A DNA stretch of 43,831 nucleotides from a virus (Duplodnaviria; Caudoviricetes), in the IMG/VR virus record IMGVR_UViG_3300022930_000006, positions 1 through 43,831 of that record; one strand, given 5' to 3'. The notes under the pieces are model-generated. The model ran no database searches and was not told the origin of the DNA. It saw only the letters and a list, made by a program, of their open reading frames with translations. Below, piece after piece: positions 4,597 to 39,739 of the stretch; the stretch's first letter is position 1, and each line of letters begins with the position of its first letter. The position numbers and the translations under genes were made by a program.

Positions 4597-5257
4597 AGAG
4601 TTACCAGTACGGCAAGTTAGCCCACTCTATGTCACGAAGTACACTAAAGGAAGTAAAACACCTTATGGCGTTGGATATGGCAAAGATGGATCAACACTCC
4701 GTAGTAACCTGGCTGTTGGTGATCTCATGTCCTGGGAGGGATACATTGACGCGTTGTTACGCAAAGAGGAATCCCAAAATAAGGTAGAAGACACAGCAAA
4801 AGCATCGGGTTTGAGCCGTAGCGAAGTCGATGACATCGTTAAGGAAGCAGTAAAGGAGGCCACCGCAGGCCTTCGAGTAGACATGAGAATCAACATGGAG
4901 GAGGAAATGAGAGATCAGATCCGCCAAGAAGTTGCAGACTCATACAGGAAAGAACAAGCATTAACCGCTGAACGCAAAGCAAAAGCTAGCGCAGCAAAGA
5001 AGGAGACACATATGTCAGATTTAACACACGGTAAAACACTACGTCAGCTCGTAAAATGGGCTTCACTAAGCAAGGACGAACGCGTCCTTCGTGAATCAGG
5101 ATTCCTTGATGAAGGTGGATCAGTAACAGAGCAAGGTCGTCGTATCATCATCGACACCATTTACGCAGAAGACGGTGATCTTCAAAAAGCCATCGTAAAG
5201 GCGATTAAGAAAACACTCCCAAAAGCGTCAAAGAGCAAGGACGAAGACGACGAATAG
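4544..5257 (+). CDS. Hypothetical protein (possible second in-frame start at 5012)
   Basis: SD AAGGAG before ATG 4544; second SD AAGGAG before ATG 5012. Confidence 0.75.
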   Translation: MSKILYPIGTKVILRKNKELPVRQVSPLYVTKYTKGSKTPYGVGYGKDGSTLRSNLAVGDLMSWEGYIDALLRKEESQNKVEDTAKASGLSRSEVDDIVKEAVKEATAGLRVDMRINMEEEMRDQIRQEVADSYRKEQALTAERKAKASAAKKETHMSDLTHGKTLRQLVKWASLSKDERVLRESGFLDEGGSVTEQGRRIIIDTIYAEDGDLQKAIVKAIKKTLPKASKSKDEDDE

Positions 5258-5824: not shown

Positions 5825-6271
5825 TTGAGTAGAATCAAAGAACTAGTATCAGAAGATGTTGACCAATTTGACGAACCCATTGGGCCCGGGCTGGTTAAGA
5901 GTCAATCCCTAACTATTATTGGTAGCCTTGCCAAGCTCAATGAGCATGACAGCGCCAACCGCAGCAATCGTTTTGTGGGGGCCAAGTTGAAAGCAGAAAT
6001 GACTGAAATGGTCATGCTTCAATGCGGTCCCCTGAAACCTATAACAGGCCCAGTCGTTGTAAGCTTCCACTGGTACTTTTCCAGCAAGCATGATTTTGAC
6101 AATATCGGGTTCGCCCGTAAGTACGTCTTAGACGGTATGGTGCACTCAGGAAAGTTACCAAACGACAATCAAAGTTGGGTTCATGGTTTCGGTGCAGAGT
6201 ATTTTACAAAAGTCCCGAAAGGGCAAGAGAAGGTTGTAGTCACTATAGTGGCAAGCGATCGCACGTTATAG
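5825..6271 (+). CDS. rusA: RusA-like Holliday junction resolvase
   Basis: HDFDNI...KYVLDGMV..G.LPNDN catalytic motif; TTG start after AGGAG. Confidence 0.85.
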   Translation: MSRIKELVSEDVDQFDEPIGPGLVKSQSLTIIGSLAKLNEHDSANRSNRFVGAKLKAEMTEMVMLQCGPLKPITGPVVVSFHWYFSSKHDFDNIGFARKYVLDGMVHSGKLPNDNQSWVHGFGAEYFTKVPKGQEKVVVTIVASDRTL

Positions 6272-6431
6272 ATGGTAATGAGCGTAAGGCTAGTGAAATA
6301 GAGTAGATTACGGCAAAACCCAGTCTGACCGTAGCGAACGCGACCCTAGAGCTGGGGTGATGGGGTCACTATTCTAATTCCCCCGAAATCGAGGGTTTTA
6401 GAATCTTCTTACGCTCTTTACTGTCTATAAC
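6265..6431 (+). ncRNA. Candidate structured RNA A
   Basis: 24-bp closing stem (6265-6288 with 6408-6431; 2 G-U pairs, 1 mismatch) around nested hairpins. Confidence 0.6.
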
Positions 6432-34696: not shown

Positions 34697-34871
34697 ACAC
34701 ACAGTGTAGCATAATGTATGCACTTTGTACACAGCTTGTATCGTATATACCTTTTTGAAAGACCCCCCCTGAGATTTTTTGTAGGCATGTTATTAGGTAT
34801 GGCCTGCGAGCATAAACGCATATCCCACGCCCCGCCGCGCCACACCGCCAGGCTCCACGATTTAGTGTCCA

Positions 34872-34901
34872 CCCGCCCCCTCCCCTACCCCCCCTCACCC
34901 C
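34872..34901 (-). other. G-run tract (potential G-quadruplex)
   Basis: Minus strand GGGGTGAGGGGGGGTAGGGGAGGGGGCGGG. Confidence 0.55.
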
Positions 34902-35032
34902 TGTAAAAACAAACAAACACACACATATATTAACCCACACATGTACATGGTATGATATGCCATCATGTAAGGCCCTGTATGCCCATGCACACACGCATAA
35001 TGACCATGGTATCAGCTATCACACATAGCCTA

Positions 35033-35060
35033 ACGTCGTACAATCTATGTTGTGCGACAT
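35033..35060. other. dif-like tyrosine-recombinase site (11-6-11)
   Basis: ACGTCGTACAA-TCTATG-TTGTGCGACAT; arms are inverted with 2 mismatches. Confidence 0.55.
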
Positions 35061-35424
35061 AAGAAGGGGTAATGTGAGGGTCATATGGGTAGCACTATGG
35101 GTAATCTAGGGGCTATAACAGGGGTCAGATAGGAATGTGTATGGCTATTACAGAAGGTGGATGAGTGAACGTGACGGAAGAACAATATAGAATCGTACTT
35201 TCGAGTACTATGCTGGTGCTCTGCACTCTACTAGTCTCTTAGTCTCCTATACAAGGATTACACCTAGGACCAGGCAATCACGGCCGATTTTATCCCCTTT
35301 GCTTCGCCTACTATATGAGTGCTACGTTACTATCTACTGTGATGCTCCTATGTTTACTACATGTAATGACCAACCAATATTAGACAATCAGGGCGGATTT
35401 ATGTCAAATTAACCCTTCTCAGCC

Positions 35425-35433
35425 TGTGGATAA
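35425..35433 (-). promoter_or_regulatory. DnaA box
   Basis: Exact TTATCCACA on the minus strand in the divergent intergenic region. Confidence 0.45.
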
Positions 35434-35461
35434 GTCAATAAGATTTCATGAATTATATGGG

Positions 35462-35490
35462 TTTACAATGGTTAAGGCTTGGCGTATAGT
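35462..35490 (+). promoter_or_regulatory. Early promoter P1
   Basis: TTTACA-17-TATAGT. Confidence 0.7.
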
Positions 35491-35610
35491 TAGACATAGC
35501 CAAACGGCCTACCGCAACTTAAAAACACAGCGCACACGATCAACATAATAACCGCTCTATAAATAACCTTACACTCATACTTAGTGAAGACAACCTTAGA
35601 AATTATATAG

Positions 35611-35639
35611 TTGACAAATAAAGCGCCGTGAACTAAGAT
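35611..35639 (+). promoter_or_regulatory. Early promoter P2
   Basis: TTGACA-17-TAAGAT. Confidence 0.75.
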
Positions 35640-35814
35640 TGAGATAGCTCGAAAGGCTAACACATTAACAACTCGACAACCATCACTGACTAGCATGATA
35701 GCTATGAAGGGGGACAGGAAGCTAGCAAGCAACCTTAGATAACCATCAGTGATGCACGTTGATTCAGTACAGTATATTGATAGATTGATAACGATAACAA
35801 ATGAAGGACACTAT

Positions 35815-35976
35815 ATGACATACGAACCAACAGCAACCAAACGATACCAGTACCGACGTGCAGGATTAGTAACGATTAAGAGCCAACCATCACAGCCTAC
35901 AAGCTGGGGCGGATTTGCACTGATCGTCATACTAACAGCAATGTTACTACTACCAGCACTGCTAGGGCTAAACTAA
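35815..35976 (+). CDS. Small protein with C-terminal TM helix
   Basis: Start MTYEPT after AAGGA. Confidence 0.7.
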   Translation: MTYEPTATKRYQYRRAGLVTIKSQPSQPTSWGGFALIVILTAMLLLPALLGLN

Positions 35977-36215
35977 TGAAGACTGCAATTATATTGACAG
36001 TAGTAGCACTGTTTGGAGCATTACAACTATTACATGATATAGCTGAGGCTATGCCAGTACGAGTACCATCAACCCAGCAAACTCTTGAAGTGTGTAACAA
36101 AGCGCATAACGAGATCAACGCTGAGAGTGAAGTGCTCTGTGGTCAAATGCAAGACCAAACAGGGACACAATATGGTTGTGACATCAACGGCCAAAATTGT
36201 TTCTTAAAAAGATAG
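35976..36215 (+). CDS. Small secreted or membrane Cys-rich protein
   Basis: Signal-like N-terminus, four Cys residues; TAATG coupling. Confidence 0.7.
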   Translation: MKTAIILTVVALFGALQLLHDIAEAMPVRVPSTQQTLEVCNKAHNEINAESEVLCGQMQDQTGTQYGCDINGQNCFLKR

Positions 36216-36243
36216 CGTTATCGCTATCAATCTATCAATATAC

Positions 36244-36597
36244 GTTCAGTATTATCATGGGCACATAAGAGAAACGGCCGAGCAATCGGACTTCGTATCC
36301 TAAACAGTGTAAGTCTAATCTTGTGTGTTCAGAGTACCAATATGAGTGTGGCGAAAGCCCTAGTACAGACGTGAAGCGAGATTGTAAGCAAAGCTATTGC
36401 CGAGCGCACCATCCAGCCACTATGCAGTTGTCGGGATGCGTAACCACATTAGCTCATTGCGGAAACAGTCGAGGAGCGTGTCGGATCACTATTTACTTAG
36501 CCCGACAATCAACGTGCCTAGTGTGGGGTAGTACCACAACAATAGATCAGTAGCTTTAAGTTAGGCCTGATCCCCTCGACCCATGATAATACTGAAC
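36244..36597 (+). ncRNA. Candidate large structured ncRNA (~354 nt)
   Basis: Perfect 18-bp closing stem, three internal domains, GNRA loops and a 9-bp cross-domain pairing. Confidence 0.7.
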
Positions 36598-36642
36598 TTT
36601 GATGATACCCGTACCCCCGGCTGTTCGATTCAGTCCTTCAAA
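36598..36642 (+). ncRNA. tRNA-like minihelix (acceptor stem plus T-arm)
   Basis: TTTGATG/CTTCAAA stem continuing into GGCTG-TTCGATT-CAGTC. Confidence 0.4.
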
Positions 36643-36825
36643 CCTGGAAGCAAGGCCAGGCTCAAGATGGGTCAAGGGCGCGAGTGTTATCAAACACAAC
36701 TGGTAGGTGTAGTGTTGCCCTTTGGGACACTGAAAGGCGCATAATGTGGGTCATGCAACGGCACAAAGGCTAACACTTTGCTTATCAGGCAATATAAAGT
36801 AACAAATGTAAAGGGGTAACGGGAC

Positions 36826-37068
36826 ATGTTTGAAGTATTTAACTGTAGCACAGGAAAAGTAGTACAACATTGTAAGGACGCCAAAGAGGCACACATAGCA
36901 AAACAACAACAAGAACTAGCACACGTCTGGATTGACGGGACTAAGTTCAGTTTTAGGAGCATGGATGAGAGTGATAGTAGAGAGCTTAAACGCCGACAAC
37001 AAGCCCGTCGTGTACGAGCAAGAGGTGGAAAGCTTCACCGTGTTGACCGCTTTCGATTTGCTGGCTAA
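36826..37068 (+). CDS. Hypothetical protein
   Basis: 80 aa with purine-rich RBS. Confidence 0.65.
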   Translation: MFEVFNCSTGKVVQHCKDAKEAHIAKQQQELAHVWIDGTKFSFRSMDESDSRELKRRQQARRVRARGGKLHRVDRFRFAG

Positions 37069-37118
37069 TTTTGCCGCTGATAACGAGAATAATAACATTA
37101 AGAGGATATATATAGAAG

Positions 37119-37304
37119 ATGAATAGATACACAATTGCAGCATGGCTACTGAGCCTACCCGTACTGTACATATTGATGACGGCGATGATGGGGGCAGAAT
37201 ACACAGACACACAGCTAGGGGCGACATTTACTTACGCAATTTTTCCGATTTGTGCATGGTTCATAGCTCTACACATGTCTGAAAAGAAGTACCCACGGCG
37301 ATGA
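37119..37304 (+). CDS. Small two-TM membrane protein
   Basis: Two hydrophobic segments; SD AGAGGA. Confidence 0.65.
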   Translation: MNRYTIAAWLLSLPVLYILMTAMMGAEYTDTQLGATFTYAIFPICAWFIALHMSEKKYPRR

Positions 37305-37483
37305 AAATAGTAGAGAAGCGCAAGATCAATAGCGATATCTGGACCTGGTTACTGTTTACAGTAGTCTGGGCATTTATAGCATTCATCGCATACAACACAG
37401 GATATAAAGACGGACGGGATAACGTTCAATCATTAACAGGAAAGGTAACAATCAATGACAGGCATGATGCCCGACAAAACTAA
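37301..37483 (+). CDS. Small single-pass membrane protein
   Basis: ATGA overlap; TM then YNTGYKDG. Confidence 0.65.
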   Translation: MKIVEKRKINSDIWTWLLFTVVWAFIAFIAYNTGYKDGRDNVQSLTGKVTINDRHDARQN

Positions 37484-37811
37484 AGAGGAGTACGAGAAAC
37501 TATTTGTTTATGGTATCTTCCTCGGCGAAGGAATGCGAAACGCATACGAAATGAAGAACCCAAGCTATAGCACCGTGCCACAATACGTGACCGTTGGTGA
37601 AGGTATCGTACAAGCCGTTAAGGTGGACGCTAAGGGCGTTGCACTCACAGGATTACTTGTTGATGTACCCAAGAGTGTATGGCCACGACTGGACCGCTTA
37701 GAAACAGGCTACAGTCGCGTCAGAGTAAAGACACACGGCAACACAACGGCATTCATGTACGCAGTTGCTAACGACGGTGGCTACAACCACAGCACAGTCA
37801 AATCATATTAA
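37464..37811 (+). CDS. Gamma-glutamylcyclotransferase (AIG2-like) family protein
   Basis: LFVYG...V.G.L......RLDRLE.GYSRV.V......AFMY motif. Confidence 0.8.
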   Translation: MMPDKTKEEYEKLFVYGIFLGEGMRNAYEMKNPSYSTVPQYVTVGEGIVQAVKVDAKGVALTGLLVDVPKSVWPRLDRLETGYSRVRVKTHGNTTAFMYAVANDGGYNHSTVKSY

Positions 37812-38635: not shown

Positions 38636-39739
38636 ATGGCAATTAAATATCAATCAGCTATCAAGGCTATTCAAGATGCAGGATTTACTCACATCAAGGT
38701 AGAGCTTGAAGGACACCTAAGGCGTGGAAGTCGTGGCGTAGTCGATGGCTACCACCTCGGCGATGACGACGACTGTGAAAGGTTCCTCAAGGATCAATTA
38801 TCAGCTGAAACAAAGCGTAAGATAAACTACATGCGCTTTTACAATGATGGATCAGTAGACAGCGAGGTAACATTCACCCTACCCGTTCAACACTCGGAGA
38901 TTATTGTGGAAGTAATCCAAGCCTGGAATCAACTAGTAGAGGCTAACGGTGGAACTTGTGACGTTAATGGAGCAGGCATGCACATTGCAGTCCTACCAAC
39001 AGCGACATATCCCTCACCCGGTCAATTGCCAGCTGATAAGGTTCGAAACTTTAAGAGTGAAGTGACAAAACTACTACCAGCACTGTATATTGCAGCAACC
39101 AGTGGTGATTTCACCCGAGGTCTACGATTCCGACAGGCAGCAGTAAGCTCAGGAACTAAGTATTCAGCTATCTACTTGCGTAACGACGCATCAATTGAAT
39201 ACCGACTGTTTGAGACTTGTTACCAACGACCCGAGGCAGTGTTTGAATTTATCGGAGTAATTGCCCGTACACTTGAGTACTACACCGACCCGACCAAGAA
39301 GGTTGAGTCAACTGGTGAAGTGTTCAGTATCTACGAAGGTGAAGGACTAAAGGGTTACACCTCCTTCTCGACTCAGATCAAGATTCTTAAACGCCAATTC
39401 AAATACGTTCAGCCAGAAGGTATGACGGTCCGTGAGTTCATGGAATGCCGAAATATCAACCTCACATTAAAATCAACGAGGGAAAAGGAGGCCGGACGCA
39501 TAGCAAAACTCAAGCTATCGTACCAAGAGCGCAAGAAAGCTCATGAAAAAGTACGAAGCGAACCGCTTAATCAGTTTCATCTGGATAACATCGAGTACTG
39601 GAAAAGCGTTGAACCGAACCACCCGGAAGATTTTTACTGGGAGCGCGTTACTGGTCACAAGGCAAAGATTGAAACGGAAAGAGCCTATATTGATAATAAC
39701 TTAGTCACGAGTAGTGCAATCGCTACCGTGAGAACATAG
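38636..39739 (+). CDS. Putative amidoligase (COOH-NH2 ligase fold) 2
   Basis: KVELE, DGSVDSE, AGMHIAV, KYSAI and SIEYRLF motifs. Confidence 0.75.
   Translation: MAIKYQSAIKAIQDAGFTHIKVELEGHLRRGSRGVVDGYHLGDDDDCERFLKDQLSAETKRKINYMRFYNDGSVDSEVTFTLPVQHSEIIVEVIQAWNQLVEANGGTCDVNGAGMHIAVLPTATYPSPGQLPADKVRNFKSEVTKLLPALYIAATSGDFTRGLRFRQAAVSSGTKYSAIYLRNDASIEYRLFETCYQRPEAVFEFIGVIARTLEYYTDPTKKVESTGEVFSIYEGEGLKGYTSFSTQIKILKRQFKYVQPEGMTVREFMECRNINLTLKSTREKEAGRIAKLKLSYQERKKAHEKVRSEPLNQFHLDNIEYWKSVEPNHPEDFYWERVTGHKAKIETERAYIDNNLVTSSAIATVRT

Follow-up and report, generated by a model that had tools for sequence, protein, structure and literature searches.

The window analysed here, the complete 43,831-base virus record IMGVR_UViG_3300022930_000006 (Duplodnaviria; Caudoviricetes), carries on its plus strand, at positions 35646 to 37083, a series of long inverted repeats that close around tiny genes and small RNAs. 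Comparison with 25 relatives indicates that this is a real, family-wide RNA architecture, in which stems most likely act as helices in the sense-strand transcript and loop out exchangeable cargo, and that processing of the stems by a host enzyme, in the manner of a ribosomal RNA (rRNA) operon, is a plausible mechanism. A first, sequence-only reading had drawn the region as an early transcript tiled end to end by modules, coding or not, each looped out by its own stem as in rRNA precursors. The looping out of both coding and non-coding modules is borne out by covariation, G·U bias and varied cargo in the relatives, while the end-to-end drawing is partly wrong.

Helices were scored with 3 for a GC pair, 2 for AU, 1 for GU and -4 for a mismatch, and a strong stem was defined by a score of at least 40, a value that the best helix reached in 1% of 300 dinucleotide shuffles of 35646-37083 (mean of the best helix, 29.7). 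The plus strand of the whole window holds only four such helices, three of them within 35772-36788: a first inverted repeat, IR1 (score 55), a second, IR2 (43), and a stem at 36700-36788 (41); the fourth lies at 6265-6431 (49). IR1, whose arms at 35772-35798 and 36217-36243 pair at 26 of 27 positions with a single A·C, is the 27-bp repeat that the sequence-only reading had seen around two small membrane or secreted open reading frames (ORFs). Its right arm begins as described, 2 nt after the stop of ORF2 at 36215. The enclosed genes, ORF1 (35815-35976; 53 aa, C-terminal hydrophobic helix) and ORF2 (35976-36215; 79 aa, N-terminal hydrophobic segment, four cysteines), overlap by one base, stop to start, and indeed each contain a hydrophobic 19-mer (mean Kyte-Doolittle value 2.7 for ORF1 and 2.0 for ORF2). 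Neither matches a Pfam or PHROG family, and a ribosome-binding-site-like GAAGGA of ORF1 (35803-35808) lies free inside the IR1 loop. IR2 (36244-36261/36580-36597) is paired at 18 of 18 positions, abuts IR1 exactly, with the zero-nt gap at 36243/36244 that had been proposed, and closes a 354-nt module that is probably non-coding. It is followed by a 97-nt module containing a T arm (36598-36694) and, 5 nt further on, by the 25-bp stem of 36700-36724/36764-36788, which combines 18 Watson-Crick pairs, 5 G·U pairs and 2 mismatches around a 39-nt loop (z -3.2).

Pair probabilities from a fold of 35646-37130 lie between 0.88 and 0.98 for the GNRA hairpin (0.93), the CATCACTGA stem (0.98), IR1, IR2, the CCTGG hairpin (0.93) and the 36700 stem (0.88), so that both small hairpins named in the sequence-only reading are present and predicted to form. 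The same holds for the 9-bp CATCACTGA/TCAGTGATG stem-loop (35681-35754), but its score of 22 is at chance level, helices of 22 arising about 18 times per shuffle. Three further brackets did not survive: the letters of a minihelix acceptor stem (36598-36604/36636-36642; score 10), of the GAGTGTTA/TAACACTT module (17) and of the TTATCAG/CTGATAA bracket (16) around ORF3 (36826-37068; 80 aa, basic) are all present, but each has a probability of 0.0, and ORF3 has no significant enclosing stem. Since the small brackets score and fold poorly and their bases are better used by longer stems, the tiling is limited to 35772-36788, where it runs through IR1, IR2, 36598-36694, 5 nt and 36700-36788 (gaps of 0, 0 and 5 nt); outside it the tiling fails, two module boundaries had been misplaced and not every module is bracketed.

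The case for RNA function comes from the relatives. Specifically, an alignment of 36 homologues of the protein encoded at 38636 led to 10 viral and 35 metagenome loci, of which 24, together with one further region, make up the 25 relatives (labelled L138-L189); the 21 loci left out comprised the window, duplicates of other loci and those offering little sequence upstream, and the upstream zone was set at 3.2 kb upstream of the 38636-type gene. Stems of at least 40 occur at 4.3 per 10 kb in the sense strand upstream of the amidoligase cluster, compared with 1.3 in the antisense and 0.4 and 0.3 downstream, and 21 of the 25 relatives have at least one. When G·U and A·C were both scored 0 in a strand-neutral recount, 37 upstream helices contained 129 G·U against 36 A·C, with 29 stems G·U-rich, 2 A·C-rich and 6 tied, and 7 downstream helices were G·U-rich too (25 vs 9); a first count giving both pairs +1 yielded 311 vs 186 (control 202 vs 208) and was diluted by chance helices. 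Of 24 pairs in each case, compensatory changes affect 6 in an ORF-pair stem compared over 4 sequences and 12 in a tRNA-like stem compared over 5, and 0 of 500 shuffles were as high in either case, a count that is not a probability because the sequences are related. Covariation, G·U bias and sense-oriented cargo together make it most likely that the stems act as RNA and unlikely that they serve DNA inversion. That they loop out modules as sense-strand helices is well supported by the relatives; action as RNA is shown by comparison for the family, and we infer it for IR1 and IR2.

Inversion of the DNA, or recombinational exchange of cassettes at the inverted repeats, had been offered as the alternative. 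IR1 and IR2 are near-perfect as DNA and cargo does vary among relatives: in one of three sequencing runs that contain the window stretch, X3, a close relative keeps 36573-36617 and 36700-36933 while 148 other letters replace the 82 of 36618-36699. Both forms of the idea are nevertheless very improbable given the G·U bias in the arms of relatives, the sense orientation of 14 of 14 ORF cargoes and arm sequences with no site common to different lineages. Inversion is further disfavoured because tyrosine (PF00589) and serine (PF00239) recombinases are absent from the complete genome, although a host enzyme could act instead, and because contigs of the three runs show no strand-switch joint, a weak test given that rare forms are lost from contigs and that the record may itself come from one of the runs.

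Comparison also shows that stem length is independent of the cargo and that the cargo is exchangeable. In a set of 34 stems, made up of 32 upstream ones, the 6265 stem of the window and one from L189, length ranges from 18 to 32 bp with a median of 25, the lower end being fixed by the score threshold, and is uncorrelated with loops of 3-433 nt (rho -0.04, n=34); the near-constant length of about 25 bp suggests the footprint of a protein. Loops of at least 170 nt are found in 16 of the 34 stems, and 14 of these 16 are filled to 83-96% by one to three tiny sense ORFs, with 4-28 nt between the left arm and the first start and 1-15 nt between the last stop and the right arm; the remaining two, IR2 and one in L166, look non-coding. 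Other stems hold T-arm RNAs of 71-75 nt (L138-L140, L142, L143) or loops of 3-8 nt, and empty hairpins of 24-27 bp lie just upstream of an ORF in L138-L142, L146 and L168. In L158 and L144, ORF pairs that look similar by eye are enclosed by different arms (scores 59 and 44).

Tight packing of stems is enriched but is not the rule: 18 of the 68 stem sides have another helix no more than 5 nt away, where 7.3% would be expected, and 6 of 68 directly abut one (1.2% expected), at four distinct junctions, two of them in the window. Such zero-nt junctions, together with the enrichment of T arms, would suit an arrangement resembling tRNA punctuation, in which RNase P or RNase Z cuts beside tRNA-like modules and the stems merely protect the ends. 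This is improbable, as the acceptor stem lacks conservation (64% paired), T arms are missing beside most ORF brackets and 62 of the 68 sides are not zero-gap.

A second signature is a tandem 5'-UG-3'/3'-GU-5' wobble, present in 17 of the 34 stems (4.7 expected from pair-order shuffles) and central in 16 of them, compared with 1.3 expected and a maximum of 8 in 5,000 shuffles; the reverse-order tandem occurs only once. When one random stem was drawn from each of 13 homology groups, assigned by eye, 3.8 still had it against 0.32 expected, and in tRNA-like stems it is invariant (5 of 5) while half of the other pairs change. The window has the tandem in the 36700 stem (36708-36709) and in the centre of the 25-bp stem at 6265-6431, a plus-strand stem of the same type outside the region. 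It lies directly 3' of a RusA-like gene, near the end of the plus-strand block, and its 117-nt loop is non-coding and multi-hairpin (z -5.4). The tandem may be a determinant for a different enzyme, may fall in a distal box or may block cutting; as an RNase III dyad it found no support in the E. coli matrix considered below.

The leader adds a resemblance to rRNA operons (rrn). The early transcript likely starts near 35646, from the promoter-like site P2 (35611-35639), which matches the consensus at 10 of 12 positions and shares 18 identical nt with a promoter of L142; a second sigma-70-type site, P1 (35462-35490), is likewise a 10/12 consensus match. Promoter-like sites number 5 in the region against 7.0 +/- 2.8 in shuffles, and a strict promoter was found in the equivalent region of 20 of 27 loci. 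After P2, the window places first the GNRA hairpin (35646-35658; one bulge, in the position of rrn boxB) and then a boxA-like element (35659-35675, core TTAACAA at 35665-35671), which follows the boxB-boxA order of rrn leaders as given in part of PMC10250234. With E. coli rrnB boxA as reference, sites with at least 14 of 17 matches occur 4 times in 3,563 promoter-proximal positions, twice in 215,385 positions elsewhere and 0 times in 219,220 antisense positions. Eight copies of TTAACAA lie no more than 130 nt from a strict promoter, against 0.68 expected; the word, which was picked after being seen in the data, is thus found in 8 of 20 loci and ranks top of 105 anagrams.

Taken together, the region may be read as an rRNA-operon-like early transcript whose stems are cut by a host RNase III-type enzyme to release each unit, a reading with about an even chance of being right. 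The sequence presents promoter-like sites, the GNRA hairpin, the boxA-like word and then abutting stems of 18-27 bp. Host Nus factors would load at the boxA-like word, and the Nus-loaded polymerase would pass the long untranslated region while distant arms are helped to pair. In turn, helices of 18-32 bp would present footprints for a dimeric double-stranded RNA (dsRNA) nuclease, and the UG/GU tandem, 8-14 bp from the stem base, would help to set or restrict the cut. The 5' and 3' ends of the products would stay paired in a stub and so resist decay, which would make the small mRNAs and tRNA-like RNAs long-lived in early infection.

The 34 stems are compatible in size and span with duplexes cut by B. 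subtilis RNase III, which according to part of PMC11780869 measure 10-36 bp with cuts up to 505 nt apart and show no preference for G-C/C-G between the cuts. The E. coli enzyme was represented by a matrix of 12 central positions built from pair counts in Table S4 of PMC6212723, a source used in part. On this matrix, IR1 (-18.4) and IR2 (-19.2) score like the E. coli 16S helix (-18.5). For that control helix the best cut falls 115 nt before the 16S start, in agreement with the known site.

Several observations weigh against the processing reading. Against shuffles of their own pair order, the 34 stems reach a mean matrix percentile of 0.49 (a weak test, in which the E. coli control reaches 0.85), and cuts centred on UG/GU, where E. 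coli sites have G-C/C-G pairs, score -26 to -36; E. coli rules therefore neither single out the stems nor accept the tandem as a cut centre. The two main stems of the window, IR1 and IR2, have no UG/GU and no G·U at all, and the sole IR1 mismatch is an A·C on the plus strand that would be a G·U on the minus strand, so the RNA reading of these two stems rests on the relatives, which are not independent of one another. The window copy of the boxA-like word is only 10/17 identical to E. coli rrnB boxA, the core word is missing from 12 of the 20 loci with a promoter, and none of the best three copies per locus matches, by eye, GYTCTTTAANA, which part of PMC5725501 gives as the boxA consensus of gamma-proteobacteria, while other genera may differ. 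In the full-length fold, the conserved 5' strand of the T-arm module (36607-36617) pairs outside its own module, with 36813-36823 in the ribosome-binding region of ORF3, possibly as a switch and possibly by chance.

The homologues of ORF1, ORF2 and ORF3 point the same way. ORF1 has weak homologues in L142 and L139 (pairwise E 4e-5 and 0.002), ORF2 in L146 (E 1.7e-5) and L139 (0.013), and ORF3 in L141 (E 2e-8), all unbracketed, with best enclosing helices of 21-28. Loss of the bracket in relatives that keep the same genes, which had been named as evidence against the proposal, is in this respect partly observed. Because these genes are kept without a bracket, the bracket is not needed for ORF1, ORF2 or ORF3, and IR1 is probably a recent or lineage-specific one, with which its absence of wobble pairs would be consistent.

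The matrix result holds cleavage at an even chance and leaves some room, though distinctly less than half the weight, for stems that stay uncut. In that alternative, the helices would insulate folding, shield untranslated RNA from Rho or single-strand nucleases, or bind a protein that reads UG/GU, and the wobble would be an anti-cleavage mark. All RNA-level evidence fits it equally, and the close neighbours on 18 of 68 stem sides and the missing matrix signal speak for it. In the E. coli RNase III sites of PMC6212723 (Table S4), the 8 bp at the centre hardly ever include a wobble pair (0-2 of 85 for each position and type), and PMC10250234 describes the E. coli leader-trailer helix as needed for 30S assembly independently of RNase III. 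On the other hand, hairpins with loops of 3-8 nt (24-27 bp) are as long as stems that span 400 nt, which exceeds the length required for stability. IR1, a duplex of 27 bp with almost perfect pairing, has a score close to that of a known RNase III substrate, and no known RNA-binding family was found among the ORFs scanned with Pfam (25 ORFs) and PHROGs (44 ORFs).

The small, hydrophobic products of ORF1 and ORF2 bring to mind type I toxin-antitoxin-like or switch-like control, in which 5'-3' pairing silences the mRNA of a small membrane protein until it refolds; in hok/aapA-style control, long-range pairing of this kind hides the ribosome-binding site. Competing hairpins do overlap an arm in four relatives and in the window. 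In L173, L174, L177 and L189, the outer half of each arm has a rival partner: for the left arm this is a hairpin just before it that has a 4-nt bulge, and for the right arm a hairpin further downstream. By eye, both hairpins covary with the arms. In the window, an alternative hairpin, terminator-like on the minus strand, covers the inner part of the IR1 right arm (36211-36228; probability 0.0 in the full fold). Equilibrium prediction, however, gives a pairing of 0.00 between ribosome-binding region and arms in 14 of 14 ORF brackets, which makes translational silencing unlikely, and most cargo peptides of the relatives are, by eye, not hydrophobic, many stems contain no ORF and antisense promoter-like sites are at chance level. 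As such, this form of control is quite unlikely here. Ligation of excised units into circular RNAs has only geometry in its favour, in that the last stop and the first start lie about 20-40 nt apart across the stem end; no RNA ligase family was found among the ORFs scanned with Pfam and PHROGs, and circles are very doubtful.

Among known systems, the arrangement would work like an rrn precursor and like the early RNA of T7 or SP82. With the rrn operon it shares promoter, hairpin and boxA-like word in the same order, long helices of similar length that close separate RNA units (25-40 bp in rrn; PMC10250234) and co-transcribed tRNA-like RNAs. It is not an rrn operon: its cargo consists of tiny ORFs and uncatalogued RNAs and includes no rRNA (no Rfam match in the window), both cargo and arms are replaced rapidly, the boxA match is imperfect and patchy, no boxC was seen in the phage, and its stems have the central UG/GU motif. 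The RNase III sites of T7 and SP82 early mRNA, cited in portions of PMC1935012, PMC4838370 and PMC8708148, likewise place long stems between genes of a polycistronic early RNA, and the empty 24-27-bp hairpins just upstream of an ORF resemble them. According to PMC1935012, however, those stem-loops are local and their internal loops are cut on one side, whereas in this family many stems surround a whole gene pair or an RNA as long as 433 nt. Closer in span are the B. subtilis scRNA precursor, where cuts on both sides of a stem around a 255-nt loop free a stable RNA (PMC1935012), and the long-range mRNA duplexes of that species (10-36 bp, up to 505 nt apart; PMC11780869, in part), but these are single host loci, untiled and without exchangeable gene cassettes. 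Intervening sequences of rRNA resemble the phage units as optional cargo in a helix loop excised by RNase III (PMC8708148, in part), but they lie inside rRNA, which the phage region does not contain. A search of the literature, outside which most subscription papers lie, found neither gene-enclosing stems in phage early RNA nor a description of this phage family.

A more far-reaching version of the proposal, tentative and on balance unlikely as a whole, is that the phage family runs its early region as a mini rRNA operon with exchangeable cargo. In it, Nus factors at boxA would chaperone the helices, and a host dsRNA nuclease that reads the symmetric UG/GU, unlike E. coli RNase III, would free closed-end mini-mRNAs, with the last stop beside the first ribosome-binding site, and tRNA-mimic decoy RNAs. 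The architecture would point to a general phage strategy of borrowing host signals for rRNA transcription and processing and putting any cargo into a helix loop. The UG/GU mark offers a precise, mutable handle for finding a nuclease or protein that reads the stems and could help to identify the host. The cargo includes uncatalogued structured RNAs, such as T-arm modules and RNAs of 320-430 nt, and its tiny orphan proteins and RNAs are candidates for host takeover or counter-defence, while gene-enclosing stems could act as portable mRNA-stabilising parts.

Two protein families recur around the brackets. An acidic peptide of 27-40 aa with D-A-x-S-x-T-Y near its C-terminus is always first in a bracketed pair (L173 436-546, L174 887-997, L175 76-165, L177 1346-1462, L179 1700-1786, L172 ~4743-4826 and L169 376-498); two members scanned with Pfam gave no match. 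A conserved basic 70-aa protein, a candidate nucleic-acid binder whose L173 copy has no Pfam match, lies 3' of the bracket (L173 749-964; homologues in L164, L169, L172, L174-L177, L179 and L189).

The 97-nt module is closed by a stem at 36598-36616/36676-36694 and contains the T arm (36619-36635) and the CCTGG hairpin (36643-36660). Its homologue in L160 keeps the long closing stem and the T arm but not the acceptor stem, with 3 pairs changed on both sides, and over these two sequences 97% of cells are paired in 36598-36608/36684-36694 compared with 64% in the acceptor stem; a fold restricted to pairs within 150 nt contains the long stem. Paired ends, a T arm that comes first and covaries, and further hairpins downstream, which differ between window and L160, recall the Y RNA YrlA, where according to PMC4201824 paired ends enclose a T arm followed by AS and D stem-loops. 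By two defining features named there the module is nevertheless not a Y RNA: the GNCGAAN0-1G motif near the 5' end is missing from 36598-36620, and in place of a Ro60 gene within 4 kb there is no TROVE match in the genome. Rfam gives no match either.

Inside its terminal helix, the 354-nt RNA is no more stably folded than shuffles (z +0.3), and it is to this helix that the z of -3.55 for the whole is owed. Neither Rfam, at gathering score over the whole window and at E<=10 for 34700-37300, nor ARAGORN, over the window and 45 loci, gave a real match or a tRNA or tmRNA, and the identities tmRNA, RNase P and SRP were dropped on the strength of these Rfam and ARAGORN results. Alignment with the large RNAs of L166 and L171 revealed no convincing homology; these two (L166 999-1467, L171 6243-6689) are related non-coding RNAs of 450-470 nt with similar closing arms, an inner helix that covaries by eye and no Rfam match. 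Pattern scans with the 3' part of the 354-nt RNA and with the 36598 module hit 0 viral contigs, and one with the loop motif of the 36700 stem hit 1. This motif (36725-36761) recurs directly after the ORF bracket in L173, L174, L177 and L189 with changed surrounding arms, and a low-depth contig of run X1 keeps it between arms that are different yet, by eye, complementary.

T-arm hairpins number 8 in 77.7 kb upstream, against 2 each in the downstream sequence (121 kb) and the antisense strand (199 kb); a T-arm pattern scan returned 120 stretches, and nearly all of the 80 listed were ordinary tRNAs or unrelated. An RNA family of about 125 nt, with a long stem, a hairpin and then a T-arm mini-tRNA without anticodon arm, is found at L138 2993-3121, L139 5630-5758, L140 6046-6173, L142 5633-5751 and L143 5832-5948. 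The only tRNA among 28 related loci, at L160 447-603, was recognised by Rfam (38.3 bits) and missed by ARAGORN; a 22-bp stem encloses it, and its anticodon region is enlarged. Separately, a 26-bp stem at L145 2264-2431 surrounds a sequence that resembles a tRNA and has a CAT-containing loop, with no Rfam or ARAGORN match.

The record has direct terminal repeats and belongs to a podophage. Its minus strand encodes an SU10-type portal, a capsid protein, an M23 lysin and a terminase, and its plus-strand block, at the start of which the region lies, begins with small ORFs followed by GGACT, amidoligase and glutamine amidotransferase genes; from its position and the promoter-like sites at 35462 and 35611, this block would be the early transcript. 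The three runs that contain the stretch are labelled leaf litter metagenome. The closest named phage is an uncultured one with 46% terminase identity, blastn of 35400-37500 against 50,697 phage records found no match, and a search with the 38636 protein gave none either. A locus search with the 37830 amidoligase as single protein confirmed 0 of 8 candidates. Host searches in GTDB located 0 loci with the amidoligase-like alignment; the 1 terminase they returned (41%) sits on a 2.6-kb contig, and the genome concerned shows neither a portal nor a 16S match. Atlas taxa gave no indication of the host, and Saccharibacteria as host is a guess that no result supports. Between the divergent gene blocks, 34730-35460 is non-coding, contains poly-C runs and tracts in which purines and pyrimidines alternate, and may be an origin or packaging region. 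Just downstream of the region, a 61-aa ORF occupies 37119-37304, and the close relative in run X3 lacks 37117-37300, almost exactly that ORF, which is, judged from its contig, gain or loss of a whole gene without any bracket.

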